From Pseudomonadota bacterium (GTDB lineage Bacteria > UBA10199 > 2-02-FULL-44-16 > JAAZCA01): 64,000 bases of DNA. Each line of letters opens with the position of its first letter. Positions within the stretch are counted from its first letter, which is position 1. Under the pieces are notes generated by a model. That model was not told where the DNA came from and ran no database searches. It was given only the letters and a program-made list of their open reading frames with translations. Shown piece by piece: positions 189-28,491 of the stretch. A program made the position numbers and the translations under genes. The stretch is taken from positions 498 to 64,497 of the forward strand of contig JAZDOG010000068.1 in NCBI GenBank assembly GCA_043798915.1, written 5' to 3'.

Positions 189-1061
189 TCACGCCACCCC
201 CCTCTTCCGACGCTGGCTCCGCCGCTCGAACGCGGCCGGGCTCAGGTACCCGAGCGCCGAGTGGCATCGCTTCTGGTTGTAGAAGACCTCGATGTGGTCG
301 AACACCTTCGCCCGCGCATCGGTCTCGCTCTCGAAGTGCTCCCCCAGCTCGGCCTTGAGACCGCTGAAGAAGGACTCCATCGCGGCGTTGTCGAGACAGT
401 TGCCGCTGCGACTAATGCTGCAGACGATGCCCTGCTTCTGGAGGGCCGCTTGGTAGTCCTCGCAGGTGTAGGGGCTGCCGCGATCCGAATGACAGAGCAA
501 GCCGGCCTCCGGGCACCGGCGGCGGACCGCCATGTCCAAGGCGGCGAGAGTGAGCTGGCGGTCGTTCGTCCTCGAGAGCGCCCAGCCGGCCGCGAAGCGC
601 GCGAACAGATCGAGGACGACCGCGAGGAAGAGCTTGCCGTCGGGGAGGACCAGTTCGGTCGTGTCCTTGACCCAGCGCTGGTTCGGCTGCCCGGCCGAGA
701 AGTCGCGGGCGAGCAGGTTGGGGGCAGCGGGCTGCGCCGGGTCGCTCTTGGTCGTGCACTTGAAGCGTCGCTTCAGCCGGGCCCGCAGACCCTGGTCGTG
801 CATCAACCGGATGACCCGATTGCGCCCGACGCGGACGCCCTGGGCCTGGAGCTGGCCATGGACGCGAGGGCTGCCGTAGTACCGCCTGCCCGCCTCGTAG
901 GCGGCGCGGACCTGCACCTCCAGGCGACGGTCGTCTCGCGAGTGCTTGGACTCGGGGCGCAGGCACCAGGCGTAGTAGCCGGCACGGGAGACATCGAGCG
1001 CCTCGCAGAGCATCGACACCGGGTAGTGGGCCTTCTCCGCCTCGATGAACACGAACCTCAC
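189..1061 (-). CDS. IS3 family transposase OrfB (DDE integrase core). It is expressed as an OrfAB fusion by -1 frameshift.
   Basis: Sequence shows ...HSDRGSPYTC...ISRSGNCLDNAAMESFFSGLKAE..., an rve/DDE integrase signature. The frame stays open upstream to the slippery site. Confidence 0.9.
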   Translation of the reverse strand: MRFVFIEAEKAHYPVSMLCEALDVSRAGYYAWCLRPESKHSRDDRRLEVQVRAAYEAGRRYYGSPRVHGQLQAQGVRVGRNRVIRLMHDQGLRARLKRRFKCTTKSDPAQPAAPNLLARDFSAGQPNQRWVKDTTELVLPDGKLFLAVVLDLFARFAAGWALSRTNDRQLTLAALDMAVRRRCPEAGLLCHSDRGSPYTCEDYQAALQKQGIVCSISRSGNCLDNAAMESFFSGLKAELGEHFESETDARAKVFDHIEVFYNQKRCHSALGYLSPAAFERRSQRRKRGVA

Positions 1062-1375
1062 GTGCTCTCCTTCGCGAAGAAGGCCGCCGCTTTTTTTAGG
1101 ATGTCGCGCTCCATCTGCAGCCGGCGGTTCTCCTTGCGCAACCGCACGAGCTCCTCGCGCTCCATGGCCGTGAGGCCCGACTTGCCGCTGTCGCGGTCCG
1201 CCCTCGCCTGCCCGACCCAGGCGCGCAGCGCCGAGTCGGTCAGGTCGAGATCGCGGGCCACCTCGGCCGGAGTCTTCCCCTCGTCCAACACCAGCCGCAC
1301 CGCCCCCGCCTTGAACGCGGCGGTGAACTCCCTGCGCGCCCTATGCTGCCTGCTCTTCTTGCCCATGGTCGACAC
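1058..1375 (-). CDS. IS3 family transposase OrfA (helix-turn-helix).
   Basis: The 105-aa protein reads MSTMGKKSRQ...LRKENRRLQMERDILKKAAAFFAKEST, the typical IS3 OrfA leucine-zipper/HTH. The A AAA AAA G slippery site lies near its 3' end. Confidence 0.9.
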   Translation of the reverse strand: MSTMGKKSRQHRARREFTAAFKAGAVRLVLDEGKTPAEVARDLDLTDSALRAWVGQARADRDSGKSGLTAMEREELVRLRKENRRLQMERDILKKAAAFFAKEST

Positions 1376-8012: not shown

Positions 8013-8507
8013 TCATTTGCCCGCTCTTTTTGGAGAAGATTCCATAAGTTTGAAATATGCCTTGAGGAACATGACGCCCAAGTTCCTGTGGGGTGGAATA
8101 TAGCTTCGAAACTCATCCATCCCGCCAAACCTGCCTTCGGCTCGCCTCCAGAATTCCGGCCAGTTTATATCTTCTCCCGTAAGAATAGCCTCGTTCAGCA
8201 TCTTAAAGAGGGGGTCGTTTACATTCATGGTCCCCGTTCCCTTTGTCGAAATTATATGGGCCTCAGGGGCCCTCTCAAGCACGGCCGATACATTATTATA
8301 TCCACCGCACGACCCGAGCGACACTATCTTTGCAATGCGCGGGATCCTCCCTATTGTTTCTCCCGCGTGAAAACTGTGTCCCCTGTGAACCACCATGATG
8401 GATTGGATGTTTCTTTTGGAAAAGACCTTCTGTATCTCGTCCGGGCCTTTTTCAACGCCTTCGGATGTCGGCTTGTTGGCGTATATCTCGATTCTTTTGC
8501 CTTTCAA
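8013..8507 (-). CDS. Hypothetical protein, probably a 5'-truncated gene remnant. No ATG is present. The frame stays open upstream into the repeat complex, to a TGA near 8615.
   Basis: The protein-like sequence ...RHQYNGKSGWKTEDHGRYVLIESPSLKGKRIEIYANKPTSEG...HRGHSFHAGE...SLGSCGGY continues upstream of the annotated TTG start and ends inside repeat DNA. The region is low-GC. Confidence 0.35.
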   Translation of the reverse strand: MKGKRIEIYANKPTSEGVEKGPDEIQKVFSKRNIQSIMVVHRGHSFHAGETIGRIPRIAKIVSLGSCGGYNNVSAVLERAPEAHIISTKGTGTMNVNDPLFKMLNEAILTGEDINWPEFWRRAEGRFGGMDEFRSYIPPHRNLGVMFLKAYFKLMESSPKRAGK

Positions 8508-8960: not shown

Positions 8961-10895
8961 ATGCCAATACAGAAGAAGGGACCCAGCGGTTTGAAAGGGG
9001 CCCACAAGACGGTTGCCCTCTGGCTCATGATCATCATCATGGTGATGCTCGTGATGCACCTCATGAACCAGCCTGTGCAGAAGGATGAGAAGGTCAATTT
9101 CTCCGACTTCCTCTCCGCCGTGTCCGCCAACGGGATCGAGTCGGTCAGCATCCAGGAGGATGAGTATCGCGGCAAGTTCAAGCCCGACTACAAAAACGGC
9201 GCGCGCTTCGAGACGATCGGCCCCGAGGGGAGCGAGAAGGCCCTGGAGAAGCTCGCGGCCACGGATGCCAAAGTCGAGTATCTGAAGAAGAAGGAGACGC
9301 CGTTCTGGCAGTCGATCCTGATTTCGTGGCTCCCCATGCTCCTGCTCTTCGGGTTTTTCTTCTTCTCCATGAGGCAGATCCAGGTTGGCGGCGGCAAGGC
9401 GATGAGCTTCGGGCGCAGCAAGGCCAAACTAATAGCCGACAGCCAGCGCAAGGTCACCTTCGCCGACGTCGCCGGCATCGAGGAGGCCAAGGACGAGCTG
9501 CGCGAGATCATCGCCTTTCTGCGCGAGCCCAAGAAATTCACGATGCTCGGCGGCCGGATCCCGAAGGGCGTGCTCCTCATGGGGCCCCCGGGATCGGGCA
9601 AGACGCTGCTGGCCCGCGCGGTCGCCGGCGAGGCTGGCGTTCCGTTCTTCTCGATCTCCGGCTCCGATTTCGTCGAGATGTTCGTGGGCGTAGGCGCCGC
9701 ACGCGTGCGCGACCTCTTCGAGCAGGGCAAGAAGAACGCCCCCTGCATCGTCTTCATAGACGAGATCGACGCCGTCGGCCGCCACCGCGGCGCCGGGCTG
9801 GGCGGCGGCCACGACGAGCGCGAGCAGACGCTCAATCAGCTGCTCGTCGAGATGGACGGCTTTGAATCCAATGAAGGCGTCATCATCATGGCGGCGACGA
9901 ACCGACCGGATGTCCTCGATCCGGCGCTTTTGCGCCCCGGCCGCTTCGACAGGCGCGTCGTGGTCCCGAAACCAGACGTCGCCGGGCGGGAGGCTATCCT
10001 CAAGGTCCATTCTACCAACAAGCCGCTCGCGGCCGACGTCATCCTGGGGGTGATCGCCCGCGGGACGCCCGGCTTTTCAGGCGCGGATCTCGAGAGCGTG
10101 GTCAACGAGGCTGCCTTGCTTGCGGCGCGCATCGGCAAAAAACTCATCGAGATGAGCGACTTCGAACTCGCCAAGGACAAGGTCCTCATGGGCTCGGAGC
10201 GCAAGAGCATGATCATCTCGGAGGATGAGAAGAAGAATACGGCGTTCCACGAGGCGGGGCACACGCTTGTAGCAAAACTCACGCCCGGAACGGATCCGAT
10301 CCACAAGGTGACGATCATCCCGCGCGGCATGGCATTGGGGCTTACGCAACAGCTCCCGACCGACGACCGCTATACCCAGAATCGCGTGTTTTGCGAGAAC
10401 TCGCTTTCGATACTCCTTGGCGGTCGCGCCGCTGAGGAGCTCATTTTTCAGCAGCCCACCACCGGCGCCGGCAATGACATCGAGCGGGCCAGCGAACTCG
10501 CGAGAAAAATGGTCTGCGAGTGGGGGATGAGCGACAAGCTTGGGCCGCTCTCGTTCGGCAAAAAAGGCCAGGAGATATTCCTGGGCCGTGAGATCTCGCA
10601 GCACGCGGACTACAGCGAGGACACTGCCCGCGAGATAGACTCCGAGATAAAGAGGTTCGTGATGGAGGGCTACGGGCGGGCCAAAAAGATACTGGCCGAC
10701 AACCGCGACACGCTCACGCGCCTCGCCGAGGCGCTTCTCGAGCACGAATCTCTCTCGAACGATCAGATAGAGAAGATCATGCGTGGCGAAGAACTTGGTC
10801 CGCGCGTGATCTCCGCCGACGAAGCGGCTATTTCGGCTGAGCGCGCGGCAAAAGCCCAGCCATCTTCCACGAAGACCGCGCTTGAAACTGCATGA
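8961..10895 (+). CDS. ftsH: ATP-dependent zinc metalloprotease FtsH.
   Basis: Present are N-terminal TMs, AAA Walker [24 protein letters not shown], the SRH and the HEAGH zinc motif (FHEAGHTL). Confidence 0.95.
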
Positions 10896-12765: not shown

Positions 12766-14142
12766 ATGACGGAGACACGCAAAGGGATATTCGGAACCGA
12801 TGGCGTTCGGGGGCGGGCGAATGAGAATCCGATGGATTCCGACACGGCCCTGGCCCTCGGGCGGGCGGTGGCGGCTATCTTCAAGAACGGTTCTCACCGG
12901 CACCGCATCGTCGTCGGCAAGGACACCCGGCTCTCAGGCTACATGATCGAGACGGCGCTGGCCTCCGGGATCTGTTCAATGGGCGCGGATGTGATGCTCG
13001 TTGGTCCGCTCCCCACGCCGGGGATCGCCTTCATCGCCAAGAGCATGCGCGCCGACGCCGGCGTAGTGATTTCGGCGTCGCATAACCACTTCGACGACAA
13101 CGGAATCAAATTCTTCGACAAGGATGGCTTCAAGCTCCACGATTCGCTGGAATCGAGGATGGAGGAACTTGTTTCCTCGGGCCTCAAAGGGGTCCCCCGT
13201 CCGACGGGCGCCGCGATCGGCCGCGCCCAGAGGATCGAAGACGCCGACGGCCGCTACATCCAGTTCCTGAAAGGGACCTTTCCCAACGAACTGACGCTCG
13301 ACGGCTTGAGACTCGTTGTCGACTGCGCCAACGGGGCCGGCTATCGCGTTGCGCCAGCCGTCTTCCAGGAGCTGGGCGCAGAGGTCATCGAGCTCGGGAC
13401 GCATCCCGATGGCATCAACATCAACGATGGCGTTGGCTCGCTTCATCCGGGAAGGATGTGCGAGCTGGTGCGGAAGGTGCACGCCAATGCCGGCATCGCG
13501 CTGGACGGTGACGCCGACCGCGTCATCATGTGCGACGAGAAGGGGAACGTGGTCGATGGCGATGTGATCCTTGCGCTCGCTGCCGACGACATGAACCGCC
13601 GCGGAGCGCTCGCAAAGAGCACCCTTGTGGCCACGGTGATGAGCAACCTGGCCCTGGACAGGGCGATGAGAGAGAGGGGCATCGAGGTCGTGCGCAGCAA
13701 GGTGGGCGACCGCTACGTCATCTCCGCCATGCGCGAGGGAGGTTACAACCTCGGCGGCGAGCAGTCAGGGCACATAATATTTCTCGATCAGAACACGACC
13801 GGCGACGGCATAGTGGGTGCGCTCGAAGTCCTCTCCTGCATGTGCAGAGACGGGCGGCCGCTCTCTGAGCTGGCAAATATTTTTGAGCCGTATCCGCAGG
13901 TTTGCCTCAATGTGCGCGTGACGCGAAGGCGCGAGTTCACCGCCATTCCTGAGATCGCCAGAACCGTCGAAAATTTCCGGTCGGAACTTGGGCCAGACGG
14001 TCGCCTGCTGCTGCGTTTCTCCGGCACCGAGAACATCGCGCGGGTGCTGGTGGAGGGCTCGGACGGAGGGCGCATCCGCATCATGGCCAACGACCTCGCC
14101 GGCCTTATCGTAACTCATCTCGGCGCACCGCCGGTGATGTGA
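12766..14142 (+). CDS. glmM: Phosphoglucosamine mutase.
   Basis: Sequence shows [10 protein letters not shown]...[15 protein letters not shown] (the active-site Ser). The ftsH-folP-glmM order matches E. coli. Confidence 0.9.
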
Positions 14143-18778: not shown

Positions 18779-20023
18779 ATGGCGATAATCGTCCAAAAAT
18801 ACGGCGGAACCTCTGTGGCCGATGTCGGCCGCATCAAATCTGTCGCCGGCCGCGTGGCCGGCACGATGCGCGGCGGAAAGAAGGTGGCCGTCGTCGTCTC
18901 CGCGATGGCGGGCGAGACCGACAGCCTGATCGCGCTGGCGCGCGAGCTTTCGACCGAGCCGGATCCGCGCGCCGTGGACCTCATGCTTGCCACCGGCGAG
19001 CAGAAGAGCGTGGCGATGCTCTCGCTGGCGCTTCGCGAGCTGGGCATCGAATCGGAGGCGTTTCTGGGGCATGAAGCGGGCTTTGTGACGGATGCAAACC
19101 ACGGCCGCGCGCGGATCTTGAGGGTCGAGCCCTCGCGCGTCATGGCGGCGCTCGACGCGGGCCGCGTCGCGATCGTCGCCGGCTTTCAGGGGGCCACGGA
19201 GGAGGGGGAGATCACGACGATCGGGCGGGGCGGCTCGGACACCTCCGCCGTCGCGCTCGCCGCGGCGCTTGGCGCCGAGCTCTGCGAAATCTACACCGAC
19301 GTCGAGGGGGTCCTGACCGCCGATCCGCGCATCTGCGAGAATGCGCGCATCATACCGCGCATTTCATATGAGGAAATGATGGAGCTCGCAGACGCGGGCG
19401 CCAAGGTGGTGCACAGCCGCGCGGTCGAGGTCGCGGCCAAGTACCGCGTCCCCCTCATGGTCAAATCCTCTTTTCCCTCTCCCCTTGAGGGAGAGGGGGG
19501 CGGAACGAGGATCGTCCCCGATGAGGAAGTGTCAGAGGGCGCCGTCGTCTCGGGCATCACCTGTGTGACGGGCGAGGCCAAGGTCGCGATCCGCCGCGTT
19601 CCCGACAAGCTGGGCGTCACGGCGAAGATATTCGCGCCGATCGCGCGCGCCGGAATCAACGTGGACCTCATCATCCAGAACGTGTCGGCGGACGGCTTCA
19701 CCGACCTTACGTTCACCTGCCCCAAGGAAGACCTGCGGCGCGCGATGACGATCGCGGAGGCCGCGGCCAGGGAAGTCAAGGCGGGCAGGGTGGAGGCGGC
19801 CGGCGACATAGCGAAGATCTCCGCGGTGGGGCTCGGGATGCGCAGCCACGCCGGCGTGGCCCACCGCATGTTCGCGGCGCTCTCCCGCGAGGGAATCGGC
19901 ATCCAGATGATCGGCACATCCGAAATCAAGGTCTCGATAGTCACCGACATCAGGCATGCCGAGCTCGCGGTGCGCGTCCTTCACGATGAATTCGGCCTTG
20001 GCGGCGCCAGCCAGTCAGCATGA
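18779..20023 (+). CDS. lysC: Aspartate kinase (with ACT domains).
   Basis: Sequence shows [10 protein letters not shown], the AK fold, and C-terminal ACT repeats. The track ORF starting at 18701 is an upstream extension into lpdA. Confidence 0.9.
19475..19498. repeat. Miniature perfect hairpin (10-bp stem CCCTCTCCCC/GGGGAGAGGG, TTGA loop) in frame inside lysC.
   Basis: Read directly. It encodes PSPLEGEG between the conserved KSSF and GTRIV of aspartate kinase. Its stem motif matches the arms of the large repeat family. Confidence 0.5.
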
Positions 20024-20146
20024 GATTGGCGGGAAATTTGGCGCTTTTTTTCGGTCATTATCAAAATGGTAATTCGTCTTCAACTGCAGCATGTTAAATA
20101 TATAACAAATTCAAGTCGTTAGACGTGTAGTATTTTTTGTTCCCAT

Positions 20147-20162
20147 TGGCACGGGGCTTGCA
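20147..20162 (+). promoter_or_regulatory. sigma54 (-24/-12) promoter upstream of the giant adhesin gene.
   Basis: The sequence TGGCACggggcTTGCA is an exact fit to the TGGCACG-N4-TTGCA consensus spacing. An AT-rich upstream region (20030-20140) could bend DNA for an enhancer-binding protein. The predicted TSS near 20174 is 30 nt before the ATG. Confidence 0.55.
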
Positions 20163-20203
20163 GATTTCCTTATATCGTAGGGGGACTTCATGTGGAGGAT
20201 CTT

Positions 20204-23200
20204 ATGAAGAAACTGTCAGCAGTGATCTCAGCCATCGTGTTGGGATTCGTGGCCTTCGGGGCAGCGGGCAGCGCGCAGGCCGGCTCGCAGTTTTCGCCTC
20301 CGATACCGATGAGATCCGATGTGGGCTCGCATGGTCAGCTGGCCCAGTCGCCCGACACAAAGGTGGACGCGACGAACTTGAAGTTTTTCGAGCATCCAAA
20401 GTATCCGCATCCTGCGCTGGGCGGCAATTACAGCGTCCCAAGCGTGCTTATAAACGGTACCGTCTATCCGATAAGTGACCTCGTTGCCACGCCAGGCCTT
20501 TTGCCCCCGGACAGCAGAAAGTTTGACATAAAGAGTGAGATGCTGGACGCATACGGTCCCCGTCCGGGAGGGTCCCTGGACCCGCTGCATGGTTTTTGCA
20601 CGGGCCCCGTCGGAAATAATGCTTACGAGGATTGTGAGGTGAAAGGTATTGTTAACCCCGTCGGGGTCTTCAGCAGCGTCGATGTCAGCAGGCAACTTCA
20701 GGTGGCTGATATACGCGACGCCCTGCAAAACGAGATGGGCCTCCTCAAAGAACAGGACCCGCTCATCGAGGCGCTCATCGGCAGCTCACATGAAAGCAAG
20801 CTGCCTTATGATGTTCAGACCTATCCGGCGACGGTGATAACAAAGTCTGGATATCTGGATGGGGTCATCGCATATGGGATCGCCGACTTCGATGCGGGCG
20901 TGGTCACAGCCACCTATGATCCGCTGATGCTGTCGATCTCGATGCAGGATGTAGGCAATATAGTATCGCCTGTAAAAGATATCCTCAACCAGCTATACAT
21001 TTCGCCTCTCGCTTTCTTCCGCAAGGACGCAGTCGCGGGAAGGATGAGGCTGGCGGGGTACTCCGGGATGCTCCTGTTCGATCCAAAACAGCTTCCGGCG
21101 AATCCGCTTGAAGTGATGGAACGCCTCCTGTTGTTGCCATCGTCCAATCCGGTCTCTGTGGCCAGCATGCCTGTAGCTGTGAGTTTTTCCGGTGCTGCAG
21201 GATCGGGCGCCTTCAAAACCATACCGGGTTTTGCCGTCGTCAATCAGGCGACGGTCGTCGATTTGGATATGCCGGTCAAGGTGGCGGGACACTCGTACGC
21301 CGATCCCTCAGACTTTCAGACACACAACTGGGGGGATTATCTCGTCCATCAAAATGGCAGCCCGATCACTTCGGCAGAGATGCCTCACCGATTGTTCTCT
21401 TATGCCTCGTTCTGGGGTCAGGGCAGGAAATGGGGTGGTGGCGATCCGACACAACCGGCGGACATGGACAATTTCAATCCCAATGCGGTTTTCACACCCA
21501 AGGTCTTTGCCATGATAGGCCGCGGCGCGTTCGATGCTGCAATGGCGGTGGACACCAAGAGCGGCACAAAATACTCGCTCGTCGTTCCATCGGGCGAGGT
21601 GGCGGAAAACAACACATTCTACCTTTATAAAGTATTTCCATATCCGACGAGCGCCAATCAGGTCTATATCAGGACAACTGTGGCCGATGCCAATCCAACG
21701 CCAATGGGGATGATCATACCGACTCCATATGAGATCGAAGTGCCCCCTGGATTCGCGCCATACGGCATCGCATCGGCCGATATCGACGGCGACGGCTGCG
21801 CCGACTTCGCCGTCACATTCCGCGGTGCCACGACGGTCGCTTTGAAAACACCGTTCAATAACCAAAAAGGCGAGAACGTCGTCTTTCAAAATCCGGCGGA
21901 CCAGACGACAATGTTCAGCAATTATGTCTACATATATAAAGGAGACCCGAATAAAAACTGCGCCATAAGCCCAGCACCGTCGATAAAACAACTGGTCGGG
22001 CCGAAGGGCGTTCAGATTGCTGCCGTTGCCCTCGCGGATATAGACGGAGATAACAAAGTTGACTTGCTCGTCGGCGACCTGATTCCGCGTCAGATCCCGG
22101 ATGGAAAGGACAAAGATAAATACACCGCATATGCCTATCTGTTCTCTTATATCGACGACCCGAACTCGTTACATGATCCGTTTAGTTATCAATCGATCCG
22201 CGTCGGTTTTAACAATTTTGACAACGCGGTGGGGCCGATTTCTGCCGCCGATCTCCTGGATATCGCGAGAGGTGCGGCCACAGGCAAAACTATAGGCGTG
22301 GCGGCCCTTGCGGTGGACAGGCAACAGGATGGATCGAATATAGGCGCGATCAACGGACTGCCGCTGGCCCTGCCGCCGTTTGGCTGTCCCTCCTTGCCCA
22401 GCAATATTGAAGTGAAGAGCGGCCTGGAAGAACTCATCGGCACCGAGCATTGCGGGACAGTTGTGTTGCCGCGCGTTGCGCGCGGGCAGATCATGCCCGG
22501 GCCCCGGGAGATGACCGTGGTGGTGAAGATGGGTGCCAGTGCCCCACCGGGCCCCATATGGACCATCCAGCAGCCAATCTATCGGAAGGTCTGCCCGGCT
22601 GGCTCTGACTGCACTAGTGATGCAGAGTGTTCGGCAAACAAGCCAGTTGGCGGGCCGTGGGTGTGCGCAAATTGCACGTGTCAGTGCAGTCTCACTCAAG
22701 CGTCCTGTCCGCCAGGTCCAGATGAGGTGCTTGATAAAGACAAATGCATATGCACCATACGACCTCCCTTAAGTGGAGGCGGCAAGTGCAATTACAACGG
22801 CAGCGTCGATCTGCCCGGTGAAAAATGCGACACGGCGGGGCTTCCAAAGGACAAATCGGATGCCCAGCTGGCGCAGAAGTGCACAAACCCGCCGCCCGGC
22901 GGAGTGCCAGATGCGTGCGATATGAAGGATTGCACCTGTTCATACAAGCAGCTGGCTTGTGCCAATCAGCTGCTGCCGCTGGCGCCGGGCAAGTGCCAAG
23001 CCGACGGCGACTGCAATAAGGCTGCCGGCGAGAGATGTCTCGTCGATTGCAGCTGTGGAGTCATCACTCCAGCCGTTCCTCCAAGCGCAGGCGCTCCTGG
23101 CGGCGAGACGGGCACCGCATGGATTCCATCCGAGAGCGATTGCACCGCCCAGGTCTTGAGCTGGACGAGCAACGATGCACACGACAAGATGGAAGCGCTC

Positions 23201-24205
23201 AACGATGCCATAGCCAAGGTAACCCTCAAACCCAATTATCAGCTGCTCGTCGAGAACGAGCAGCGAATCCGAATCATCTGCAAGGTCGGCAACGCCTCCA
23301 TGCCGGGAGCGACGAAACAGAGCCTTTCGCTCTCCGTCATCGGCGATCCTCTCCCTGATTCAGCAGACATGATACGTCCATACGCCTTGGTGCAGACCGG
23401 CGGTTCGGTATTCTTGAATTTCTATGATAAGACCAAAATGGAGTACAATATGGTCAAGCCAGTCGAGACGGCGATCAGGATCATGCCGCTGCCTTCGACC
23501 ACGGCCCAGAAGGGGATCACCGCAGGCAAGGCGGACGTCATCCTGCCGTTGCTGACGGGGGATCTTGCGGCCACGGTCCCGATGACGGATATTGTCTCAG
23601 ACATGCCCGTTGCCGTGTCCAGCGATGCCGAAATGATAAATGATATGATCCGGCATCAGATGGTGGCGCTTGGCACCGGCCAGTCCCTCTCACTCAGCGC
23701 GGATGGCATAACCTTCCAGAAGGCGCAGGCTGTCCCCGTCCAGAGCGACAGTCCGCAGTTCGTCCTCCATATAACCACGGTGTCAGCGCCGGCCGACTGC
23801 GCCTCGTTTGCCGGCGTTGAGGGCTACACAGGCTGTCCCCACATAGAGGAACAGAACCTCAATCTCGAAGCGCTCAAGGCTGCGCTGGCCAGCCGCGTCA
23901 CGTCAGGTCAGGAACCGAATGCGAGCATCTTCTCCGGCCTGCCTTGGGAACCCTACCGCAACAACCAGTTCACGCTCGTCCAGGACGTCTATGCCAAGGC
24001 GAACAGCATCGGGGCACTTGCTCCAATACAGCAGAAGTTCGCCTTCCTCACAGTCAACCCGAACTATGCGGGGCAGGGCGGATGCAAGGGCTGCTTTGTG
24101 AGCGGAGCAGTGGCTGATCTCGATTCCGTCCTGCCGACGCTCATCGCCGTCCTCTTCACCGTCGGAGGGATCGCGGCAGGCAGGGTGAGGCGCGGCAGGA
24201 AGTGA
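20204..24205 (+). CDS. Giant secreted, adhesin-like protein with a signal peptide, FG-GAP repeats, a Cys-rich EGF-like module and a C-terminal sorting tail.
   Basis: The signal peptide reads MKKLSAVISAIVLGFVAFGAAGSAQA. FG-GAP-like DxDGDG motifs occur at ASADIDGDGCADFAV and ALADIDGDNKVDLLVGD. About 40 Cys fall within ~180 aa (CTCQC, CICT, CTCSY). The C-terminus reads GGCKGCFVSGAV...LPTLIAVLFTVGGIAAGRVRRGRK*, resembling MYXO-CTERM or exosortase-type tags. Confidence 0.8.
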   Translation: MKKLSAVISAIVLGFVAFGAAGSAQAGSQFSPPIPMRSDVGSHGQLAQSPDTKVDATNLKFFEHPKYPHPALGGNYSVPSVLINGTVYPISDLVATPGLLPPDSRKFDIKSEMLDAYGPRPGGSLDPLHGFCTGPVGNNAYEDCEVKGIVNPVGVFSSVDVSRQLQVADIRDALQNEMGLLKEQDPLIEALIGSSHESKLPYDVQTYPATVITKSGYLDGVIAYGIADFDAGVVTATYDPLMLSISMQDVGNIVSPVKDILNQLYISPLAFFRKDAVAGRMRLAGYSGMLLFDPKQLPANPLEVMERLLLLPSSNPVSVASMPVAVSFSGAAGSGAFKTIPGFAVVNQATVVDLDMPVKVAGHSYADPSDFQTHNWGDYLVHQNGSPITSAEMPHRLFSYASFWGQGRKWGGGDPTQPADMDNFNPNAVFTPKVFAMIGRGAFDAAMAVDTKSGTKYSLVVPSGEVAENNTFYLYKVFPYPTSANQVYIRTTVADANPTPMGMIIPTPYEIEVPPGFAPYGIASADIDGDGCADFAVTFRGATTVALKTPFNNQKGENVVFQNPADQTTMFSNYVYIYKGDPNKNCAISPAPSIKQLVGPKGVQIAAVALADIDGDNKVDLLVGDLIPRQIPDGKDKDKYTAYAYLFSYIDDPNSLHDPFSYQSIRVGFNNFDNAVGPISAADLLDIARGAATGKTIGVAALAVDRQQDGSNIGAINGLPLALPPFGCPSLPSNIEVKSGLEELIGTEHCGTVVLPRVARGQIMPGPREMTVVVKMGASAPPGPIWTIQQPIYRKVCPAGSDCTSDAECSANKPVGGPWVCANCTCQCSLTQASCPPGPDEVLDKDKCICTIRPPLSGGGKCNYNGSVDLPGEKCDTAGLPKDKSDAQLAQKCTNPPPGGVPDACDMKDCTCSYKQLACANQLLPLAPGKCQADGDCNKAAGERCLVDCSCGVITPAVPPSAGAPGGETGTAWIPSESDCTAQVLSWTSNDAHDKMEALNDAIAKVTLKPNYQLLVENEQRIRIICKVGNASMPGATKQSLSLSVIGDPLPDSADMIRPYALVQTGGSVFLNFYDKTKMEYNMVKPVETAIRIMPLPSTTAQKGITAGKADVILPLLTGDLAATVPMTDIVSDMPVAVSSDAEMINDMIRHQMVALGTGQSLSLSADGITFQKAQAVPVQSDSPQFVLHITTVSAPADCASFAGVEGYTGCPHIEEQNLNLEALKAALASRVTSGQEPNASIFSGLPWEPYRNNQFTLVQDVYAKANSIGALAPIQQKFAFLTVNPNYAGQGGCKGCFVSGAVADLDSVLPTLIAVLFTVGGIAAGRVRRGRK

Positions 24206-24231
24206 CAGGATGCACATCGATGAAGCACCGG

Positions 24232-24263
24232 CGGCCCGGGGCAATTCCCCGGGCCGTTTTTTT
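24232..24263 (+). terminator. Rho-independent terminator after the adhesin gene.
   Basis: Read directly: cggcccgggg-caatt-ccccgggccg followed by TTTTTTT. Confidence 0.7.
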
Positions 24264-24339
24264 CTAATTAGGTGTCTTTAGCCTGAATCTCCATAAAATC
24301 CACCGATATCCAGATGTTCATCACGCGAGGGGGGAGAGG

Positions 24340-25659
24340 ATGAAAATCATCCGGGCTGGGCTGGTGGCGGCAGGTCTTGTCATTGCGGTTCTTTCAGCTG
24401 GCACAGCATATGCGCTGACCCGCAACGCCAGCGTCGTCACCGTAAACCCCACGACCGACGGGGGCAAGTACATCACGATCCATCAGTCGCAGACGCTCCC
24501 GCAGTGGAGCTTCCATACGGGCGGCACCTTCGACTACGCCTATGAACCTCTCGAATATGCCAATTCGTCCGGCAATCGTCGTCGCGGAATTGTGGACGAC
24601 CTGCTGATGATGAACGTCCAGGGAGCCATCGGCTGGACGGACTGGTGGTCGACCGGCATCAACGTCCCGTTCGCCATTTGGGAGACGTTCTATAATCCCA
24701 ACCAGACCGCCGCAGCCGTGCGCAAGCAGACCCACATGGGCAAGATGGGCGACATGAGGCTGGAGATGAAATTCCGCTGTCTCGACATCGAGCGCTATCA
24801 CGTGGGCCTCGCGGTGGTTCCGTACTTTTACTTCCCGACCGGAAAGTCTTCGACCTTCCTCGGCAACGGAATGTGGTCGCCCGGCGGCGATATCGTCTTC
24901 GACGCCGACATCAAGAACCGCGTCTTCCTCTCCTTCAACACGGGCTTCCGATACTTCAAGAGCACGCGCTATGACACCAACAACACGAACGCCGTCCTCG
25001 CGAGCACCATGAAGCTGGGACTCGGCATCAACGTGAGGATCACTGATTCGTGGGCGGGACTTGGCGAGGTGTGGTCGGAGTCGGTCCTCAAGGGCTTCTT
25101 CAAAAACCAGCTCCAGAACCCGGCTGAGTTCCTCGTCGGCGGCCGCTTCACGCCGCAGAGCATGGCGAAGGGCCTGGGCGTAACGCTTGCAGCCGGGCGG
25201 GGTTTGACAAAAGGACCGGGCGACCCTAAATTCCGCGTCCTGGCCGGCGTGAGCTACAGCCGTCTGCACGTGCCGCCGCCGCCGCCGCCGGTCAACGTGG
25301 AGGCCATGGTCGAAGAGAAGATCGTCATCACGCAGAAGATCCACTTCGAGTTCAACAGGTCGATCATCAGGCCGATTTCCTATCCGATCCTCGACGACGT
25401 GGCCGACCTCCTGCTGCGCAATCCGCAGATCAAGAGGATCAGGGTGGAAGGGCACACCGACTGGATCGGCGGCGACGCCTACAACCAGAAGCTCTCTGAA
25501 GGGCGCGCCAGGGCCGTGCGCGACTATCTGATCAAGAAGGGCATAGAGCCCGACAGGCTCGAGGCCGTTGGCTACGGCAAGAGCCGGCCGATCGCGGACA
25601 ACAACACCGTCCAGGGCCGCGCGAGCAACCGCCGCACGGAGTTCACGGTGGTGCAGTGA
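24340..25659 (+). CDS. OmpA-family outer membrane protein (N-terminal barrel-like domain, poly-Pro linker, C-terminal OmpA peptidoglycan-binding domain).
   Basis: Present are a signal peptide, a PPPPPPV linker and the C-terminal OmpA_C motif (...RVEGHTDWIGGDAYNQKLSEGRARAV...NRRTEF). Confidence 0.8.
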   Translation: MKIIRAGLVAAGLVIAVLSAGTAYALTRNASVVTVNPTTDGGKYITIHQSQTLPQWSFHTGGTFDYAYEPLEYANSSGNRRRGIVDDLLMMNVQGAIGWTDWWSTGINVPFAIWETFYNPNQTAAAVRKQTHMGKMGDMRLEMKFRCLDIERYHVGLAVVPYFYFPTGKSSTFLGNGMWSPGGDIVFDADIKNRVFLSFNTGFRYFKSTRYDTNNTNAVLASTMKLGLGINVRITDSWAGLGEVWSESVLKGFFKNQLQNPAEFLVGGRFTPQSMAKGLGVTLAAGRGLTKGPGDPKFRVLAGVSYSRLHVPPPPPPVNVEAMVEEKIVITQKIHFEFNRSIIRPISYPILDDVADLLLRNPQIKRIRVEGHTDWIGGDAYNQKLSEGRARAVRDYLIKKGIEPDRLEAVGYGKSRPIADNNTVQGRASNRRTEFTVVQ

Positions 25660-25690: not shown

Positions 25691-25720
25691 AGGGGGAGCG
25701 CACTCGCTCCCCCTTTTTTA
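25691..25720 (+). terminator. Rho-independent terminator after the OmpA-like gene.
   Basis: Read directly: agggggagcg-cact-cgctccccct followed by TTTTTT. Confidence 0.7.
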
Positions 25721-27885: not shown

Positions 27886-28491
27886 CTACTTCTTCATCGC
27901 CTTATCCACACATTCGGCGCGGAATAACCTGTCGTCCACGCGCGTTAGCAGCTTCTTCTGTTTGGGGGTCAGGAGCTGCGTGTGGGGGATGTCGACAAGG
28001 TGCTCGGCGATGAACCGGATCGACTTCTCCGTCGTCATCCAGCTCCGACTGTCGAAGCGCTTCAAATTGACGGGGCGCGAGAAGGTGCGGAGCGTGCGTT
28101 CCAGGCGCATGTTGAAATAGATGTCGAAGTAGCTCATGACGAGCTCTCGCAGCGTGCGGTAGACAGGCTCGCGCCATCGGCAGCCGGCATAGTTGGACTT
28201 GGCGACTGCGCCCCAGTGGCCGGCGACCCGGTACACGGCGATGACGTGGTCGGTGTCCTGATGGGCCTCCATATCGAGGATCAGCGGTGGAAATCCCAGC
28301 GCGCGCATGGCTGCAGCCGCAAAGACCGCCCCTTCGAGGCACTGCGCCGTGCTTTCCTTTAGCACCCTGCGCGGCGACCACGCAGTAAATTTCAAGTGAT
28401 ATGGCATGGCGTCCAGTGCGCGCTGAACCCCGTATGGCGTCTTGAAGCTGCGCAGCTTTTTGAGCTCGGCCGGCGTGAATGATGTTATCAT
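27886..28491 (-). CDS. Hypothetical protein (201 aa) with conserved Cys/His/Asp residues.
   Basis: A clean ORF between convergent recG and divergent lipA. Sequence shows ...AQCLEGAVFAAAAMRALGFPPLILDMEAHQDTDHVIAVY..., a possible papain-like or transglutaminase-like triad. No family was recognised. Confidence 0.5.
   Translation of the reverse strand: MITSFTPAELKKLRSFKTPYGVQRALDAMPYHLKFTAWSPRRVLKESTAQCLEGAVFAAAAMRALGFPPLILDMEAHQDTDHVIAVYRVAGHWGAVAKSNYAGCRWREPVYRTLRELVMSYFDIYFNMRLERTLRTFSRPVNLKRFDSRSWMTTEKSIRFIAEHLVDIPHTQLLTPKQKKLLTRVDDRLFRAECVDKAMKK

Follow-up and report, generated by a model that had tools for sequence, protein, structure and literature searches.

What kind of protein is encoded by the giant gene that lies between lysC and an ompA-like gene in this DNA, and how would it be held at the cell surface? 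The gene was analysed within a 64-kb window, the whole 64,000-nt stretch of contig JAZDOG010000068.1 from an uncultured groundwater bacterium under study, where it runs on the + strand from 20204 to 24205, including the stop codon. It encodes 1333 amino acids; the first-pass annotation had called it a 1334-aa secreted protein, of which the secretion stands and the length does not. The product is identical to P0001, recorded as 'VCBS repeat-containing protein' from a metagenome-assembled genome (MAG). It is probably a myxosortase-type, lipid-anchored surface receptor or adhesin with a layout like that of TraA/TraB of Myxococcus xanthus, while being a member of neither family.

The tail of the protein (aa 1290-1333) has three parts, as the first-pass annotation had described. 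The signature GGCKGC (aa 1292-1297, 24077-24094, +), in which Cys1297 is invariant and Cys1294 nearly so, is the presumed site of lipidation and cleavage. It is followed by the hydrophobic helix VLPTLIAVLFTVGGIAAG (aa 1309-1326) and the terminal cluster RVRRGRK (aa 1327-1333), which together occupy 24128-24202 (+). The same order of G-G-C-x-C, a spacer of 7-14 aa, a hydrophobic helix and an R/K cluster was found in 43 of the 49 family members, and most of the other six look truncated or were removed by a strict filter. In the tail alignment (A3), which gives the consensus GGGCGC, one cysteine never varies and the other occurs in at least 90% of the tails, whose identity is otherwise ~30%.

Sorting-signal hidden Markov models (HMMs) were run on 41 family tails. 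The top model was TIGR03901 (MYXO-CTERM), which matched 14 of them at E<=10; LPXTG matched 5, and every remaining model matched at most 2, with PEP-CTERM at 2 (E 1.7) and GlyGly-CTERM at 0. The tail of P0003 reached 28.1 bits against TIGR03901 when searched alone (cutoff 20) and 19.7 bits within the full protein. Thus, where an exosortase or MYXO-CTERM-type signal had been proposed from the sequence, the MYXO-CTERM half fits the family and the exosortase half was dropped. The exosortase/PEP-CTERM and GlyGly-CTERM/rhombosortase readings were both rejected, the window tail having no HMM match to them and no PEP motif.

Like MYXO-CTERM signals, the family tail stands at the extreme C-terminus and is tripartite, with an invariant cysteine, a frequent second one (GCGC-like), a helix and an Arg cluster; GCGC is typical of MYXO-CTERM, whose helices are without proline and charged residues (10.1101/2023.06.07.544157). 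The tail of TraA, GGAFCCGTTADATPAGSTTFLLLLAAGLTFLRPRRPAR, has the same long-spacer layout, with a spacer of ~13 aa (PMC11980579). The family tail HMM scored this TraA tail at 11.6 bits, above all 2000 full shuffles; 3.5% of the signature-only shuffles reached that score and invented generic tails scored 8-10 bits, so that the result adds weakly to the MYXO-CTERM likeness. Judged by its sequence, the tail is closest to MYXO-CTERM and is filed here as MYXO-CTERM-like, not as a proven member.

The gene directly downstream encodes a TraB-like outer-membrane protein of 439 aa (24340-25659, +), which has a signal peptide, a barrel (~aa 26-306), a PPPPPP linker (aa 312-317) and an OmpA domain (aa 336-431; PF00691, 87 bits). 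The first-pass annotation had described an OmpA-family protein with barrel, poly-Pro linker, peptidoglycan-binding domain and a terminator of its own, and all of these are present. Its best NCBIfam match was exchanger_TraB (NF033763), at 180 bits over two stretches with a cutoff of 700. The N-terminal domain (aa 17-304) aligned with positions 8-292 of the 522-position TraB profile at 66 bits (E 1.6e-18), and this was its sole NCBIfam match. Thus, homology to the TraB barrel was found, whereas the 700-bit score and the TSP3 linker were not: profile positions 293-383 (TSP3) are unmatched, and the PPPPPP linker stands there instead. TraB itself consists of a signal peptide, an outer-membrane barrel, TSP3 repeats and an OmpA domain, and forms a 1:1 complex with TraA (PMC12045341). 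A profile search collected 107 relatives of the OmpA-like protein, which scored 160-230 bits against TraB, none of them at the cutoff; the barrels of some weakly match PF13557, and one distant relative, P0260, combines a barrel, TSP3 (PF02412) and an OmpA domain, with 25% identity over the barrel. By these profile scores, the neighbour would be classed as a TraB-like protein, not as TraB.

The giant protein carries an integrin-alpha-like head. It begins with a Sec signal peptide, MKKLSAVISAIVLGFVAFGAAGSAQA (aa 1-26, 20204-20281, +), with a cleavage site between AQA and G and no lipobox, conserved in the family. The N-terminal domain that follows (aa 27-745, ~720 aa) is conserved, with invariant motifs including GFC, FFRKD..RMRLAGYS, NPN and LPxFGCP. 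Its first part (aa 27-219, 20282-20860, +) was delimited by invariant columns of the family alignment, among them F30, P33, P35, KFF..HP, GFC and VAD.R. The remainder (~aa 220-745, 20861-22438, +) was assigned by Pfam, AlphaFold and Foldseek to an integrin-alpha-like FG-GAP beta-propeller, marked by the motifs FFRKD..RMRLAGYS, NPN and LPPFGCP. Pfam returned only FG-GAP_3 (PF13517; 37.4 bits vs a cutoff of 26.9) plus a weak FG-GAP match for the window protein, and more than 90% of the length of the family is without annotation.

An AlphaFold run with 8 sequences was poor, with a mean predicted local distance difference test (pLDDT) score of 50 and values below 30 over aa 27-219, and was replaced by a run with 43 sequences (pLDDT 74). 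In the latter, aa 339-739 were modelled with high confidence (mostly 80-97), aa 749-860 poorly and aa 861-1289 well. About 45 of the 50 matches listed by Foldseek against the PDB were integrin alpha chains (best E 5.6e-7, probability 1.0), the best being integrin alpha headpieces; a profile search of PDB sequences with the A1 alignment gave only marginal integrin FG-GAP matches (E 0.6). Two loops of the FG-GAP calcium-binding type were located: DIDGDGCADF (aa 526-535, 21779-21808, +), which is loop-like and contains the family-invariant Cys532, and DIDGDNKVDLLVGD (aa 612-625, 22037-22078, +), in which D620 and G624 are invariant. The FG-GAP calcium-binding repeats of the first-pass annotation were therefore confirmed by an FG-GAP_3 score above the gathering cutoff, by both motifs and by the predicted integrin-type fold.

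The model thus supports a head formed by an integrin-alpha-type propeller with DxDxDG loops. Passing the FG-GAP_3 cutoff and having such loops, it resembles both integrin alpha chains and bacterial FG-GAP (VCBS) proteins. It differs from integrin alpha in having just two recognisable FG-GAP repeats and ~10% sequence identity, in TM-scores of 0.3-0.4 on the target, in the lack of a beta-subunit partner and in its bacteria-specific flanking domains.

Behind the head lies the linker motif RGQIMPGPREMTVV (aa 760-773, 22481-22522, +), conserved in the family alignment. The window protein lacks an insert of 400-700 aa, variable and either Cys-rich or of low complexity, that precedes this motif in relatives. 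Next comes a Cys-rich module of 155 aa (aa 797-951, 22592-23056, +), presumably a disulfide-bonded stalk, the first half of which was poorly modelled by AlphaFold. About 40 cysteines in ~180 aa had been claimed for this module; the count is 22 in 155 aa, with 34 in the whole protein. The suggestion that it is EGF-, TSP- or metallothionein-like found no support in Pfam or NCBIfam and was discarded, and the window module gave no NCBIfam match at E<=10. Relatives in the comparison loci L006 and L007 carry CGNG..GE.CD repeats, and the Cys repeats of relatives weakly resemble, below threshold, myxo_disulf_rpt (TIGR02232; 15.2 and 11.5 bits vs 20.8) and DUF4215 (22.3 bits vs 27). The window module is a degenerate version of these repeats.

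The stalk is followed by a conserved alpha/beta domain of ~330 aa (aa 956-1289, 23069-24070, +), presumably membrane-proximal and modelled mostly at pLDDT 75-94. It had no Pfam match, and neither the family profile (A4, against PDB sequences) nor the model retrieved a solved relative; it is a novel base domain. The best reading of the modelled protein as a whole would be a head, a stalk and a base.

The expression of the gene is probably under sigma-54 control. An exact -24/-12 promoter, TGGCACG-N4-TTGCA (TGGCACGGGGCTTGCA, 20147-20162, +), lies 57 nt 5' of the open reading frame (ORF); the element itself had been reported by the first-pass annotation. It is the sole match in the window, even when one mismatch is allowed, and ~0.018 exact matches would be expected from composition. 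The AT-rich upstream region was likewise borne out, the GC content of the 123-nt intergenic sequence at 20024-20146 being 35% against 59% for the window. Judged from the sequence, a ribosome-binding site, GGAGG (20194-20198, +), lies 5 nt before the ATG at 20204.

The window was compared with the loci of relatives (242 kb of window plus loci; 485 kb of searched strand), and a promoter match was defined by at least 10 of the 11 specified bases with GG and GC intact. The start codon is preceded by such an element, at a distance of 39-64 nt, in 10 of the 11 related units of transcription: those of the window, L002, L004, L005 (both paralogues), L006, L007, L010, L012 and L013. The searched strand held 15 matches, of which these promoters account for 10 and 5 lie elsewhere. 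The only orthologue without the element is that of L001, which has a sigma-70-like TTGAGT..TATAAT upstream (L001 9920-9970). Because the -24/-12 element keeps the same position in 10 of 11 related units, sigma-54 dependence of the big gene, as predicted from the sequence and as already proposed by the first-pass annotation, is well supported. The window promoter agrees with known sigma-54 promoters in its exact -24 GG and -12 GC (TGGCAC-N5-TTGCW context), its spacing, its AT-rich upstream region and its conservation among orthologues; it differs from established systems with enhancer-binding proteins in having no activator gene and no proven upstream activator site.

Several upstream elements may be of regulatory interest. 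The palindrome CTCATTTTGAG occurs exactly at L004 9749 and L010 2846, the only two exact copies in the 242 kb, both of them 105-188 nt upstream of sigma-54 promoters of big genes. With one mismatch, it is found at L006 4309, L006 13851 and L010 2825. Five of the ten copies with at most one mismatch lie within 260 nt upstream of such promoters (0.12 expected), and in relatives the palindrome is strongly enriched 84-190 nt upstream, which makes it a candidate binding site for an enhancer-binding protein; the window carries only a version with 3 mismatches (about 20064-20074). The window also has an imperfect palindrome followed by a T-run, GCGGGAAATTTGGCGC (20029-20044, +; 82% complementary), ~105-118 nt upstream of the -24 element, which may be a site for an activator or else a weak terminator of lysC; both assignments are uncertain. 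Runs of a CGTACGC-like heptamer directly precede the -24 element in three promoters (L004 ~9890-9935; L005 ~9905-9945 and ~19360-19400). In addition, a conserved element in the intergenic region between a ComEA-like gene and the big gene is shared by L004 (9380-9700) and L005 (9420-9720); its ends are long and complementary (gaagtgtgg ... ccacacttcc), and it has no Rfam match; Rfam gave no match in the window, L004 or L005.

In L006, a second consensus sigma-54 element, TGGCACCCTCCTTGCA (13935-13950), precedes a gene that starts at 13977 just after recG; its product exceeds 2705 aa and carries Cys-rich repeats of the Dicty_CTDC type. This is a hint that, in the lineage, sigma-54 may govern a regulon of giant surface proteins rich in cysteine.

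The big gene ends in an intrinsic terminator (24230-24265, +) with a 12-bp stem of 10 G-C pairs and a T-run, which lies in the 134-nt gap before the ompA-like gene. Because this terminator, at 24230-24258, separates the two genes, the big gene is a single-gene unit and not part of an operon with its neighbour. The ompA-like gene has its own terminator, GGGGGAGCGcactCGCTCCCCC followed by T6 (GGGGGAGCG-cact-CGCTCCCCC; 25692-25719, +), just before the recG start codon at 25720. The order lysC, big gene(s), OmpA-like gene, recG was found in the window, L002, L004, L005, L006 and L007.

A second paralogue of ~1610 aa with the same tail is present in L004 (15330-20162), where it directly follows the first, and in L005 (19458-24287), where spermine synthase and HEPN/nucleotidyltransferase genes lie between the two and a sigma-54 promoter of its own precedes the second. 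In L014, the same slot before an OmpA-like gene (42% identical) and recG is filled by a protein with an unrecognisable head. This 1273-aa analogue (L014 4119-7940) has a signal peptide, a loop of FG-GAP-like type (LNDDDCSDLAI), a middle part rich in cysteine and a tail of the form KCGGCK..helix..RRYN; the family HMMs for the N-terminal part, propeller, Cys module and C-domain gave no significant match in it. It is preceded by the same type of promoter (TGGCATGGGGATTGCA, at -46).

The characterised system closest to this arrangement is TraA/TraB of M. xanthus (PMC3325183, PMC12045341). The first-pass annotation had been unable to assign the module to a characterised system; this holds as far as membership goes, and it overlooked the TraA/TraB layout. 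In both cases, the gene directly upstream of a barrel-plus-OmpA gene encodes a secreted receptor built of a head at the N-terminus, a stalk rich in cysteine, a part close to the membrane and a tripartite tail that contains Cys. Moreover, both receptors evolve fast next to a conserved partner, and both have calcium-binding motifs in the head.

The differences are substantial. The window head is an FG-GAP propeller with extra domains (~720 aa), for which Pfam gave no PA14 match; the protein lacks TIGR04201 repeats, matches none of the TraA models in NCBIfam, has twice the length of TraA and includes a large additional C-domain. The neighbour has a poly-Pro linker instead of the TSP3 linker of TraB and scores 180 bits vs the cutoff of 700. 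The window genes form two units divided by a terminator, whereas traA and traB overlap by 4 bp. None of the three marks of TraA (PA14, TIGR04201 repeats and a bicistronic operon) was found. Sigma-54 control, predicted here, is not described for traAB in the cited traAB literature (PMC3325183, PMC12045341), and the window host belongs to an uncultured lineage.

Several observations weigh against a sorted, lipid-anchored receptor with a TraB-like partner. The window protein and four C-terminal slices of it gave no match to any sorting-signal HMM at E<=10, so the protein falls short of the curated 20-bit cutoff of TIGR03901.2; the HMM check proposed by the first-pass annotation was thus negative for the window tail itself and positive for 14 of 41 family tails, one of them above the cutoff. 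The family also departs from MYXO-CTERM in its longer spacer (7-14 aa) and in the proline common in its helices: that of the window starts with VLPT, and many members have proline in or at the edge of the helix, for example IAPFVIVMLVPIGG. In addition, the window tail lies below detection and the tail was seen in a single protein family, with no other protein carrying it in the ~240 kb sampled, while MYXO-CTERM is known from Myxococcota and Bradymonadales (10.1101/2023.06.07.544157, PMC11980579). No CPBP protease or type II secretion system (T2SS) gene was seen in the window or the loci tables, and no rpoN or enhancer-binding activator gene in the window or loci; the sorting enzyme and activators that the first-pass annotation had proposed to look for were sought among the window proteins, and neither was seen there. 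Dedicated sorting systems usually have several substrates, and membership in MYXO-CTERM would call for a cognate CPBP myxosortase (NF040914 core) in the genome together with several to dozens of tagged proteins.

These absences would suit a tail that is a plain C-terminal anchor, with the protein sitting in the inner membrane, facing the periplasm and never lipidated or cleaved, and with CxC forming a structural disulfide; the missing HMM match, the lack of a sorting enzyme nearby and the lack of other tagged proteins in the sampled DNA all speak for it. We nevertheless consider it unlikely. Every complete member keeps G-G-C-x-C, at a set distance ahead of the helix, in tails that otherwise diverge widely, one third of the tails match MYXO-CTERM, and a propeller-and-stalk protein of 1300-1900 aa is hard to fit into the periplasm. 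The miss of the window tail is expected because such short models, including the 34-aa MYXO-CTERM model, generalise poorly and need lineage-specific rebuilding (Haft, 10.1101/2023.06.07.544157).

A further possibility is that the propeller is catalytic and the protein a surface-tethered enzyme, such as a polysaccharide lyase or a dehydratase-type FG-GAP propeller. FG-GAP/VCBS propellers do occur in bacterial enzymes, aldos-2-ulose dehydratase propellers (4a7y, 4a7z) are among the Foldseek matches, and hydrolases are found among many MYXO-CTERM and GlyGly-CTERM substrates (PMC11980579). This is very unlikely, given that no enzyme family was matched in Pfam or NCBIfam, that no sequence relative was found in the PDB, that integrin chains so dominate the structural matches listed, and that the head-stalk-base layout with tandem paralogues (L004, L005) suits a receptor or adhesin. 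The partnership with the neighbour is more delicate. The big protein could work alone, the OmpA-like protein being the general outer-membrane-to-peptidoglycan tether of the lineage and the adjacency an inherited gene order, a contender that we place somewhat short of an even chance. Each gene has a terminator of its own; identity across the lineage is 55-74% for the OmpA-like protein (~100 clusters) vs 28-38% for the big one; the OmpA-like gene is found with no big gene in L008, where recG follows, and in L015, and the big gene with no OmpA-like gene in L001, where methyltransferase and M48 peptidase genes follow; and the whole region from tsaE-lpd-lysC to recG-lipA is conserved core-genome synteny. 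Against this, even L014 has a tail-tagged, Cys-rich giant under a sigma-54 promoter in the slot before the OmpA-like gene, the sole family match of the barrel is TraB, the known partner of a MYXO-CTERM receptor (PMC12045341), and a conserved TraB next to a polymorphic TraA is seen in Myxococcus as well. A functional partnership between the big protein and its TraB-like neighbour is thus about evenly balanced. Of the adhesion or tethering module with OmpA in the first-pass annotation, only the synteny is borne out: the genes have separate terminators, and each of them occurs without the other.

On the preferred reading of a lipid-anchored surface receptor or adhesin, the gene would be transcribed from the sigma-54 promoter with the help of an enhancer-binding activator up to its own terminator, as one gene. 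The product would be exported by Sec and would fold into a head (the N-terminal region and the calcium-binding propeller), a disulfide-rich stalk and the 330-aa base, while the C-terminal helix at first keeps it anchored in the inner membrane. If it is processed as MYXO-CTERM proteins are, lipidation of a cysteine of GGCKGC would be followed by removal of the helix and the Arg tail by a myxosortase-like protease of the CPBP family, and then by T2SS-dependent display at the surface; lipidation, cleavage by MrtX and T2SS export have been described as one pathway (PMC11980579, 10.1101/2023.06.07.544157). At the surface, the propeller head would most likely serve as an adhesin or receptor for a ligand carried by other cells or by surfaces, and the TraB-like barrel-OmpA protein is a plausible partner that may couple the big protein to peptidoglycan.

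The family is rare. In 5.8 billion proteins, a word-indexed search retrieved the window protein and seven relatives (28-38% identical, 1552-1864 aa). An exhaustive HMMER profile search, run against 1.84 billion cluster representatives, retrieved 48 with E<=1e-30 that cover the N-domain in full (1233-2219 aa), below which only generic FG-GAP repeat proteins were seen. All family representatives come from uncultured MAGs, as do the five loci found in a scan of 185,579 species genomes. The NCBI labels of these five are Deltaproteobacteria (groundwater), Pseudomonadota, 'bacterium' and Pseudobdellovibrionaceae, and those across the family are Deltaproteobacteria, Pseudomonadota, Myxococcales, Pseudobdellovibrionaceae and 'bacterium'.

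Elsewhere in the window, 10 unclear ORFs proved to encode an amylase-family protein, a GAF histidine kinase, a 7TM-HD receptor, a PALP enzyme, an OPT transporter and small DUF proteins. Two well-formed ORFs on the - strand (27886-28491, 201 aa; 8013-8507, 164 aa) have no Pfam match. Two overlapping ORFs at 189-1375 (-) form a putative IS3-family transposase pair, judging by translation, within the segment where the GC content of the window peaks (1-2000, 68%).

A working TraA/TraB counterpart in a probably non-myxobacterial lineage, serving contact-dependent recognition, adhesion or outer-membrane exchange with an integrin-like head, a sigma-54 activator and a new myxosortase branch, would be an attractive but improbable outcome. 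The big protein is best described as a new variant of Cys-tag surface sorting and TraAB-like layout, not as a member. To our knowledge, MYXO-CTERM sorting and TraAB-type kin recognition have so far been described only in Myxococcota and Bradymonadales. Here, a rare family joins a MYXO-CTERM-like tail, myxobacterial-type Cys repeats, a TraB-like neighbour, an integrin-type head and sigma-54 control. Even if the sorting and the partnership do not hold, the gene would still encode a giant surface protein that is particular to its lineage, evolves fast and keeps a conserved regulatory signature. If they do hold, Cys-tag/CPBP sorting would reach further than known, the TraAB-like scaffold would have a second, structurally different head, and a defined promoter and regulon would be at hand to probe in organisms not yet grown.

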